Virus record (IMG/VR): IMGVR_UViG_2537562231_000020
Strand: one strand, 5' to 3'
From: a virus
Taxonomy: Duplodnaviria > Heunggongvirae > Uroviricota > Caudoviricetes
DNA length: 7,934 bases
How positions within the stretch are numbered: the first letter of the stretch is position 1; the number at the start of each line of letters is the position of its first letter. This document shows, in pieces, positions 4,594 through 6,944 of this stretch. Under the pieces are notes generated by a model. That model searched no databases and was not told where the DNA came from. It saw nothing but the letters and a program-made list of their open reading frames with translations. A program made the position numbers and the translations under genes.

Positions 4594-5284
4594 ACTTATT
4601 CACTATAACGACAATATCGTCGGTTATGGCTCCCGTGAGTTACGGGTTGAGACAATAAGTTGCTGGCTGGCCCGGCTGGTCGTCGTCAATAAACATTACA
4701 GCCATCGTTTCGTAAATAATTCCTACCTTCATCTGGGCATATTTTCAGAACGGGAGCTGGTTGGCGTAATGCAATGGGGTTATGCCCTTAATCCAAACAA
4801 TGGTGCACGCGTCGTAACTGGCACGCAGAACCGCGAATATATGGAGCTTAACCGGTTATGGCTGCATGACTGTATGCCGAGAAACTCCGAATCAAGGGCA
4901 ATCAGTTACGCGCTCAAACTAATCAGACAACTTTATCCGCAGGTGCAGTGGGTTCAGTCGTTTGCAGATGAGCGTTGTGGCTGTCTTGGTGTCGTGTACC
5001 AGGCAAGCAATTTTGATTATGTAGGCAGTCATGAAACAACATTCTATGAACTTGATGGCGAGTGGTATCACGAGATTTGCAAGAATGCAATCAAACGAGG
5101 AGGACAGCGAGGTGAACATCTGCGGGCTAATATCGACAGAGCCAGTGTTCATAAATTCCGTCAGTTTCGTTACATCCGGTTTCTGGACAAGAGAGCCAGA
5201 AAACGCCTTAACACAAAGCTATTCAAAGTCCAGCCTTACCCAAAACCACAAACAGTTAAAACTGGTTTGAAAGAGAGTGAATGA
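4547..5284 (+). CDS. mom: Mom-like DNA modification protein (acyltransferase-type adenine modification; anti-restriction)
   Basis: Long ORF in a different frame overlapping the 3' end of com, as in the Mu com-mom operon, and sitting downstream of a Gin-family invertase as in Mu. 3' end is firm (stop 5282-5284). The start is uncertain: I placed it at GTG 4547, which is in frame with AAGGA 9 nt upstream, giving 245 aa; the first in-frame ATG is much further downstream. Assignment is mainly by gene context; I could not verify the Mom sequence from memory. Confidence 0.6.
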
Positions 5285-6944
5285 ACGCTTAAAAACTCAT
5301 TCTAAAACTCAAAAGAAAAGCGCCGATTTAGTATCAAATAAGTTGCGTATCGGCGTTTTTCAGCGGTATCAAATGAAATGCAAATCGGTATCAAAAAAAT
5401 CGCCGCGCTATAGTCAGCAGGCGGCAGAGCAGAATAAGGTGTACCAGTCCATGCTGGTTATGAACGGTCAGCATACGGAATTCAACCGTCTGCTGGGGCT
5501 GGGTAATGAACTGCTTCAGCAGCGGCAGGGACTGGTGAATGTGCCGTTACGGCTGCCACAGGCCACTCTGGATGATAAACAGCAGAGTGCCCTGACAAAA
5601 ACAGAGCGTGAGCTGGCCCTGTCCAGACTGAAAGGGGAAGAAAAAGAGCGTGCCCGGCTGGGGTATGCGGCGGATGACCTTGGTTTTGTGGGGGATTCGT
5701 ATCAGGAGGCGAGACAGCGTTATATCAGTAATGCTCTGGAAGCCTGGCGTAATAACGAGGCGAACAAACCTAAATCCCGGGGTGGAAAATCAGAGACGGA
5801 AAAAGCGGAAGACAGTTTTTCCCGGCTACTGAAGCAGCAGAAAGAGCAACTGGCACTGGCGGGTCAGAATACAGAGCTGGCGAAGCTGAAGTACCAGACT
5901 GCGCAGGGCGAACTGAAAACCCTGACGGAGATGCAGAAGCAGGAACTGCTGCGTAACGCGGCCCTGATTGACCAGCAAAAAATCCGGGAACAGTTGCGAT
6001 CCCGGGAAGAGACCCTGAAGAATGATAATGTGGCTGCGCGTGCATCAAATGAAGCCGAACTGCTGGGATACGGGCAGGGAGAACGAGCCAGGGAACACAT
6101 GCGGGAGTTGCAGCAGATCCGCGACAGCTTCCGCCAGAAGGATGCGGACCTTCAGTCTCAGTATCAGACCGGGGATATCAGTGAGGATTTTTACAGACAG
6201 GCACGGGCACAGAACGCGCAGTATCTGAGCGAACGCCTTAAGGACCAGGCAGCCTTTTATGCCGAATCGGATGCGCAGCGTGCGGACTGGCAGAAAGGCT
6301 TGCAGGAGGGGCTCAGTAACTGGTTGGATAATGCGTCCGATTACGCCTCACAGGCAGCACAGCTTGCGACGGAGGGTATCTCAGGGATGGTGAATAACAT
6401 CACGGAGATGCTGAACGGAAATAAAGTGGAATGGCGCAGCTGGGCCTCATCAGTGCTGCAGGAAATATCAAAAGTTCTTATGAATGCCGCGATTGTCAAC
6501 GGGATCAAGACGGCGGCAAACAGTATGTCCGGTGCAGGAGGATTTCTCGGCAGCATTGGTGACTGGCTGGGCGGGGCGGTGGCCAATGCAAAAGGCGGCG
6601 TGTATACCTCGGCAAACCTGAGTGCGTACAGCAACAGTATTGTGGATACGCCCACGTACTTTGCCTTTGCAAAAGGGGCCGGGCTGATGGGGGAGGCCGG
6701 ACCTGAAGCCATTATGCCCCTGACGCGGGCGGCGGATGGCTCGCTGGGTGTGCGCGCGGTGGGCAGTATGTACGGCAGTGCGGGCCTGGTGTATTCCCCG
6801 GTCTACCATATCGCCATTCAGAATGACGGGACTAATGGCCAGATAGGGCCGGAGGCGGCAGGCAGTCTTGTGCAGCTGATTGACCAGCGGGTGCAGGCGG
6901 TGATGCTGTCCATGCGACGTGACGGAGGAATGCTGAGTGGCTGA
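5277..6944 (+). CDS. H: Tail tape measure protein (lambda gpH-like), N-terminally truncated C-terminal fragment; probable pseudogene or remnant
   Basis: C-terminal region ([17 protein letters not shown]...[18 protein letters not shown]...RRDGGMLSG) parallels the lambda gpH C-terminus as I recall it (NWRSFTRSVLSMMTEILLKQ...[17 protein letters not shown]...RDGGLFSG). The middle is Gln/Glu/Arg-rich and coiled-coil-like, as in tape measures. At 555 codons it is well short of the roughly 850 aa of lambda gpH. The first roughly 45 codons run through the AT-rich repeat block and begin at a GTG with no RBS. No gpG/gpT-like genes precede it. Confidence 0.75.
5285..5410. repeat. AT-rich repeat block at the junction between the mom module and the truncated tape-measure gene
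   Basis: Tandem AAAACTCA at 5292-5299 and 5304-5311. Three copies of GTATCAAA at 5331, 5366 and 5388, the last two 22 bp apart. Inverted repeats CGCCGAT (5321-5327) / ATCGGCG (5349-5355) and GCGCCGATTT (5320-5329) / AAATCGCCGCGC (5397-5408). Composition switches to GC-rich coding sequence at about 5410. Confidence 0.4.

Follow-up and report, generated by a model that had tools for sequence, protein, structure and literature searches.

The prophage Sp18 of Escherichia coli O157:H7 Sakai is an intact Mu-like phage (PMC2669165). In O157:H7 strains, Mu-like phages have strain-specific insertion sites (PMC7430833), and for clonal complex 119 of Shiga toxin-producing E. coli ten Sp18-like Mu-like phages were reported in 13 closed genomes. 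Six of these ten phages reside in mobile elements, several of them inside Shiga toxin (Stx) phages, and the authors ascribed the variable locations to transposition (PMC10132054). The GenBank records LC727881 and LC727895 also carry nested Mu-like phages. Here, a viral stretch of 7,934 bp (IMG/VR record IMGVR_UViG_2537562231_000020; hereafter termed the window) was analyzed, which is the entire contig ADUM01000004.1 of the draft assembly GCA_000184765.2. It comprises the right arm of an Sp18-family Mu-like prophage directly joined to the 3′ part of a lambdoid tape-measure gene. Very probably, a resident lambdoid prophage of the Stx phage type has received a Mu-like prophage of approximately 38.6 kb by transposition into its tape-measure gene.

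The left part of the window, up to position 5412, is mobile DNA. At least 13 complete E. coli genomes contain this part with 100% identity, and the copy of the right arm in strain Z852 (O157:H7) is still approximately 95% identical. The junction contexts of the window and of strains JKHS016, PO06021, 600029, JE86-ST05 and Z852 were aligned, while Sakai Sp18 was compared separately as a seventh context. Each of the five genomes carries the element in another gene, encoding a JAB-domain protein (JKHS016), a diguanylate cyclase (PO06021), an SgrR-family regulator (600029), an Rhs protein (JE86-ST05) and the lambdoid T protein (Z852), and in all five the interrupted flanking gene is annotated as truncated. 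The common sequence stops at a single base in six of six aligned junctions (...AAAAAAATCGCCGCGCTATA), which is window position 5412. Together with Sp18, seven contexts end at ...CGCCGCGCTATA. The element thus has a constant terminus at varying sites, as is typical of a Mu-like element.

To the right of this base, the window belongs to another phage. A megablast search with positions 4300-7934 against complete E. coli genomes and phage records yielded more than 1000 matches in lambdoid and Stx-type prophages. These lie in the tape-measure, M and L genes, and all of them begin at query position 1114, corresponding to window position 5413. From there onward, the identity to these genes is 97-99%. 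When positions 5413-6944 were searched alone, the matches again began at 5413 and the top identity was 99.6%. The open reading frame (ORF) at the junction encodes 555 amino acids (aa), of which residues 47-555 align gap-free with residues 572-1080 of the closest intact tape measure (1080 aa, locus L022), 507 of 509 residues being identical. The alignment to full-length tape measures that the initial annotation had recommended has therefore located the onset of homology at window position 5413, that is, at residue 572 of 1080. Its second proposal, to look for relatives with an uninterrupted gene, was equally successful, as the intact gene runs across the breakpoint in 13 fetched loci, with ...GCGTTAATTC immediately followed by GTCAGCAGGCGG... 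The right end of the prophage had been placed at about 5400; the exact breakpoint is 5412/5413.

Since the switch at 5412/5413 falls on the terminal nucleotide of the element, transposition and not a random break is indicated. According to the proposed mechanism, the Mu-like prophage would have inserted between codons 571 and 572 of the 1080-codon tape-measure gene, the window showing the right-hand junction. Some 38.6 kb upstream one would then expect the 5′ half of the gene, linked by a 4-bp duplication to the phage's left end, T(A/G)TAACCAGGTG... For the target duplication the sequence GTCA is predicted, and for the left junction ...GTGTGGCGTTAATTCGTCA followed by TATAACCAGGTGAATCATTTGATACC (possibly TGTAACC...).

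Target duplications of phage Mu are 5 bp long, and this size had also been expected for the window. It did not hold for the Sp18 family, in which 4-bp flanking repeats were detected in six of six insertions examined: TACG in PO06021, AACA in 600029, CGTG in JE86-ST05, CACT in Z852, TAAA in Sakai Sp18 and GATG in the Mu-like phage residing in Stx2c_JNE082796 (LC727881). For the last of these, the depositors annotate a 4-bp "duplication due to insertion". The Z852 duplication was verified by comparison with an intact prophage, in which the empty site reads ATGAATGTTGCACTGAAGG. The duplications and termini are found at 1127 and 39752 in locus L007, in loci L008-L010, at 1471 and 40225 in L024, and at 674-677 and 40646-40649 in L023. 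A Mu-type duplication of 5 bp was rejected because in the four insertions tested only 4 bp are repeated, even if the terminal T or A is reassigned to the flank. The termini of the Sp18 family are T(A/G)TAACC...GCGCTATA, compared to TG...CA in Mu.

A complete copy of the element is present in PO06021. It has a length of 38,626 bp and its right arm is identical to that in the window. The genes of this copy encode a repressor, a small helix-turn-helix protein, a Mu-type transposase, an AAA ATPase, Gam, Mor, and lysis, head and contractile-tail proteins; they further comprise an invertase gene, a DUF6645 gene, com and mom. Both ends of the PO06021 element are inverted repeats starting with TATA. 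Three copies of the 8-mer TTTGATAC are placed at each end, at 18, 113 and 165 from the left terminus and at 18, 40 and 75 from the right one; elsewhere in the 38,626-bp phage it is present just once. Mu transposase-binding sites are spaced at the left end (L1-L3) and clustered at the right end (R1-R3). The array of end motifs has, as judged by comparison, the layout of these Mu sites, and a role of the terminal repeats in transposase binding is predicted from it. In the head-gene region of the PO06021 prophage (22217-22296 of L007), the RefSeq annotation contains a feature 'tRNA-OTHER'.

The ORF at 5277-6944 is a by-product of the junction: a GTG in the stop region of mom by chance shares its frame with the tape-measure remnant. 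All on the same strand are com, mom and the ORF, and the ORF and the mom stop codon overlap. Residues 1-45 have no counterpart in the intact tape measure and result from read-through of attR, the right end of the Mu-like prophage, while residue 46 straddles the junction. The gene caller of the source assembly started at an ATG at 5373 instead, resulting in a product of 523 aa. No record matched the 555-aa or the 497-aa form of the ORF exactly, and the 523-aa form was retrieved from the window's own contig only. Between mom and the tape-measure remnant, no terminator-like site was found on the plus strand, so that transcription from mom could run into the remnant.

On the properties of this ORF, the initial annotation was largely accurate. 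A gpH-like frame of about 555 codons that follows mom on the same strand and lacks the usual G and T genes was confirmed by Pfam, which was used for the domain assignments of the window proteins, and by the intact relatives. In the latter, the tape-measure gene comprises 3243 nt (1080 aa; 1026 aa in some) and follows the G and T chaperone genes (Phage_TAC_1, Phage_tail_T), whose place in the window is occupied by mom and attR. The start of the ORF in AT-rich repeat DNA was also recognized correctly; its initial 136 nt have a GC content of approximately 40% and the repeats are the three GTATCAAA copies of attR. That a ribosome-binding site is lacking is roughly true, as there is only a weak purine run (gaaagaga) upstream of the GTG at 5277. 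The frame is indeed short, but lambda gpH with its approximately 850 codons was not the proper comparator, because the closest intact protein has 1080 aa and only 509 codons of the ORF are derived from a tape-measure gene. The C-terminus, M and the gene overlaps proved to be intact as described, whereas of L only 219 of the 232 codons are covered before the end of the contig.

The domain composition points in the same direction. Intact relatives contain TMP_3, HK97_TLTM and Tape_meas_lam_C. In the window ORF, Pfam did not find TMP_3, and Phage_HK97_TLTM matched only over profile positions 174-292 of 295, the first 173 positions being missing. Tape_meas_lam_C is present at the C-terminus (E=6.7e-19). 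Compared to a functional gpH/HK97-type protein, the ORF has thus retained the lambda-type C-terminal domain followed by overlapping M and L genes; it is neither full-length with complete N-terminal domains nor preceded by G and G-T chaperone genes. As residues 1-571 including TMP_3 are absent, the product is probably not a working tape measure, and the lambdoid host prophage would no longer be able to build tails. The N-terminal half of the lambdoid tape measure is highly polymorphic; 13 loci contain 11 variants of it, and in some copies 54 residues are absent (1026 versus 1080 aa; L011-L020). Several loci contain insertion sequences (IS) or other insertions in or near tail genes, such as IS91-type genes at the place of the tape-measure gene in L015 and IS21-type genes in front of J in L011.

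Some observations weigh against the insertion of a complete prophage. Only the right arm and the right junction are seen in the window, which includes neither the left junction nor the transposase genes nor the tape-measure gene's 5′ half. Because the window is a complete contig, the whole prophage, the 5′ gene half and the GTCA duplication are predictions only. An exact scan of the genome contig collection with the right-junction sequence gave no match. Among the best 120 proteins for the predicted left-junction product (residues 1-571 plus HITR, 575 aa), none had 575 aa, or 597 aa as calculated for the alternative of a 5-bp duplication. Moreover, the copy of the Mu-like prophage in JKHS016 is degraded, its tape-measure, DNA-circularization and tail genes being annotated as partial. 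This in-place decay makes a later deletion possible at the window locus as well. It is thus conceivable, albeit unlikely, that after the insertion described above a deletion or recombination event took away some of the Mu-like prophage, the 5′ half of the tape-measure gene, or both, leaving a decayed nested prophage with just a right-end remnant joined to the tail genes. Of the Mu-like element, the window holds the final 5.4 kb only, and the contig terminates within the invertible region, which would fit such a course. On the other hand, intact prophages of 38.6 kb carry the right arm with 100% identity, suggesting a recent insertion, and in a draft assembly short, repeat-bounded contigs are to be expected whether the prophage is intact or not. 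Position 1 is located inside the invertible tail-fiber segment beside the invertase gene of the Mu-like phage (positions 117-275 matched Sp18 in both orientations) and position 7934 inside gene L. Both regions are repeated DNA, and the contig is short because both of its ends are repeat boundaries.

Besides an insertion into the lambdoid tape-measure gene, which is borne out at the visible junction by the homology from 5413 onward and the mobile right arm to its left, the initial annotation had offered a deletion or illegitimate recombination between two unrelated prophages, without transposition, as the origin of the junction. Viewed in isolation, the window displays an abrupt switch of homology that would agree with this; nothing specific speaks for it, though, and the proposal was not supported. 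The switch occurs at the exact terminal nucleotide of a transposable prophage, as defined by six independent insertions, and the phage end and the tape-measure locus share no sequence (best short match 11 nt, E=0.56), which renders such an origin very improbable. An assembly chimera of Mu-like and lambdoid prophage reads, for which one could invoke the short contig, the older draft assembly and the repeated phage DNA at both ends, is less probable still, since assemblers misjoin through common repeats, none of which exists at 5412/5413, and since the break is located at the element's biological terminus. The window junction itself occurs in no complete E. coli genome; the sole record covering at least 80% of positions 4300-7934 is Z852, which represents another insertion (T gene). 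Finally, the long open frame, the intact lambda-type C-terminal domain and the adjoining M and L genes might be taken for a genuine short tape measure of a hybrid phage. This is hardly conceivable at all, because the first 45 codons are attR/mom DNA that is identical in genomes without a tape-measure gene next to it, because the 555-aa sequence is on no record and its 523-aa version on the window's own contig only, and because TMP_3 and 173 profile positions of HK97_TLTM are missing. As the finding that would contradict a truncation, functional tape measures that share this N-terminus and are about 555 aa long had been named beforehand; all relatives examined have 1026-1080 aa and G/T chaperone genes upstream.

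Table 1. Features of the 7,934-bp window
Feature	Position	Strand	Remarks
Gin/Pin-type serine DNA invertase	346..918	+	Pfam Resolvase (E=1.6e-51) and HTH_7; same position as the invertase in Sp18 and the PO06021 prophage
684-aa cargo protein between invertase and com	1004..3058	+	SASA (sialate O-acetylesterase-type; E=1.5e-13), C-terminal DUF6645 (E=7.4e-68)
com	4393..4593	+	Pfam Zn_ribbon_Com (E=7.5e-13); identical copies annotated as Com family regulator
mom (245 aa; DNA modification), final gene of the Mu-like prophage	4547..5284	+	Pfam Mom (E=7.8e-78); coordinates according to RefSeq annotation of identical copies
attR (right end of the Mu-like prophage)	5285..5412	+	three GTATCAAA copies at 5331, 5366 and 5388; terminal base 5412 (...CGCCGCGCTATA)
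Reported ORF	5277..6944	+	GTG start, 555 aa; 45 codons of mom/attR DNA, one junction codon, 509 tape-measure codons
3′ fragment of the lambdoid tape-measure gene	5413..6944	+	last 2 nt of codon 571, codons 572-1080, stop
Minor tail protein, lambda M equivalent	6937..7278	+	Pfam Phage_min_tail (E=3.3e-29)
Minor tail protein L	7278..7934	+	Pfam Phage_tail_L (E=1.1e-88); 219 of 232 codons, the rest beyond the contig end

The gene content of the right arm is that of a Mu-like phage (Table 1), with a gin-type invertase and the com-mom module being identified by Pfam (Resolvase/HTH_7, Com and Mom). In Mu, com is the translational activator of mom. The cargo gene between the invertase and com has approximately 76% DNA identity, and this in part only, to its Sp18 counterpart ECs_4993, and it also matches DNA of P2-like Escherichia phages. 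Its product presumably resembles the prophage-encoded NanS-p esterases of enterohemorrhagic E. coli. Between the DUF6645 gene and com, there is a variable stretch of low GC content (32-44%; positions 3083-4297), which contains DUF1378 and DUF826 genes and a 97-aa ORF on the minus strand (3843-4136) without Pfam match. It gave no blastn match in Sp18, yet is identical in the 13 closest genomes, and looks like a swappable cargo slot.

At the lambdoid end of the window, M starts 8 nt before the tape-measure ORF ends, overlapping it, and L begins at the last base of M, the same arrangement as in intact relatives, in which L has 232 aa. An identical M protein adjoins intact tape measures of 1026-1080 aa in many genomes and is indexed in 12,870 blocks of the collection.

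The insertion of a Mu-like phage into a resident E. coli prophage is an ordinary event of an already documented class. The contig records a nested prophage and adds one case to the published pattern of Sp18-type phages in E. coli prophages, leaving the understanding of the Mu-like and lambdoid phage families unchanged. Regarding annotation, the 555-aa or 523-aa "tape measure" on this contig should be marked as a pseudogene fragment. Insertions in tail modules and mobile elements comprise the tape-measure gene (window), the T gene (Z852), several Stx phages and six of the ten insertions in clonal complex 119. These cases hint that resident prophages harbor many of this family's insertions. One might speculate that Sp18-family phages favor lambdoid tail modules, or persist in them, beyond chance, as a kind of phage-against-phage inactivation, and, separately, that the 4-bp duplication and the T(A/G)...TA termini reflect a strand-transfer geometry other than that of Mu, but we consider this quite unlikely. 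Weaker selection against insertions in prophage DNA is the simplest reason for a bias toward prophages.

In Z852, a member of the same phage family resides in the lambdoid T gene, approximately 150 bp upstream of an intact tape-measure gene (1026 aa), and the remaining lambdoid head and tail genes are located on the far side of the insert (L001, L010). The Mu-like phage Mu_JNE082796 in Stx2c_JNE082796 (LC727881) is, like the element in the window, a transposable phage nested in a lambdoid prophage. It differs by its insertion point and its divergent right arm, which has approximately 76% identity over the invertase region only. The closest described relative is Sp18 itself, which encodes a Mu-type transposase and an AAA+ transposition ATPase. 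Sp18 and the window have the order invertase, large hypothetical DUF6645 gene, DUF1378, DUF826, com, mom and right end in common, and the right end of Sp18 is 95% identical to positions 4298-5412, with the same terminal base. Three-motif end arrays and 4-bp flanking repeats are likewise shared by Sp18 and the family of the window element. What separates them are the invertase and DUF6645 genes, which are only about 76% identical, and the insertion site, sorM for Sp18 and the tape-measure gene for the window copy. Mu and the Sp18-family element have in common a transposase with an AAA ATPase, com-mom behind a gin-type invertase at the right end, three repeats per end that are spaced on the left and clustered on the right, and insertion sites varying between genomes. 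Unlike Mu, the Sp18-family element generates 4-bp duplications and possesses T(A/G)...TA termini, another end motif and extra cargo between the invertase and com. On the lambdoid side, residues 47-555 of the ORF are 99.6% identical to residues 572-1080 of a gpH/HK97-type tape measure of the lambdoid Stx prophages, and Tape_meas_lam_C and the M and L overlaps are shared with such tape measures. By contrast, the 571 N-terminal residues and the G/T genes of these tape-measure loci are missing in the window, where the first 45 residues of the ORF originate from unrelated DNA.

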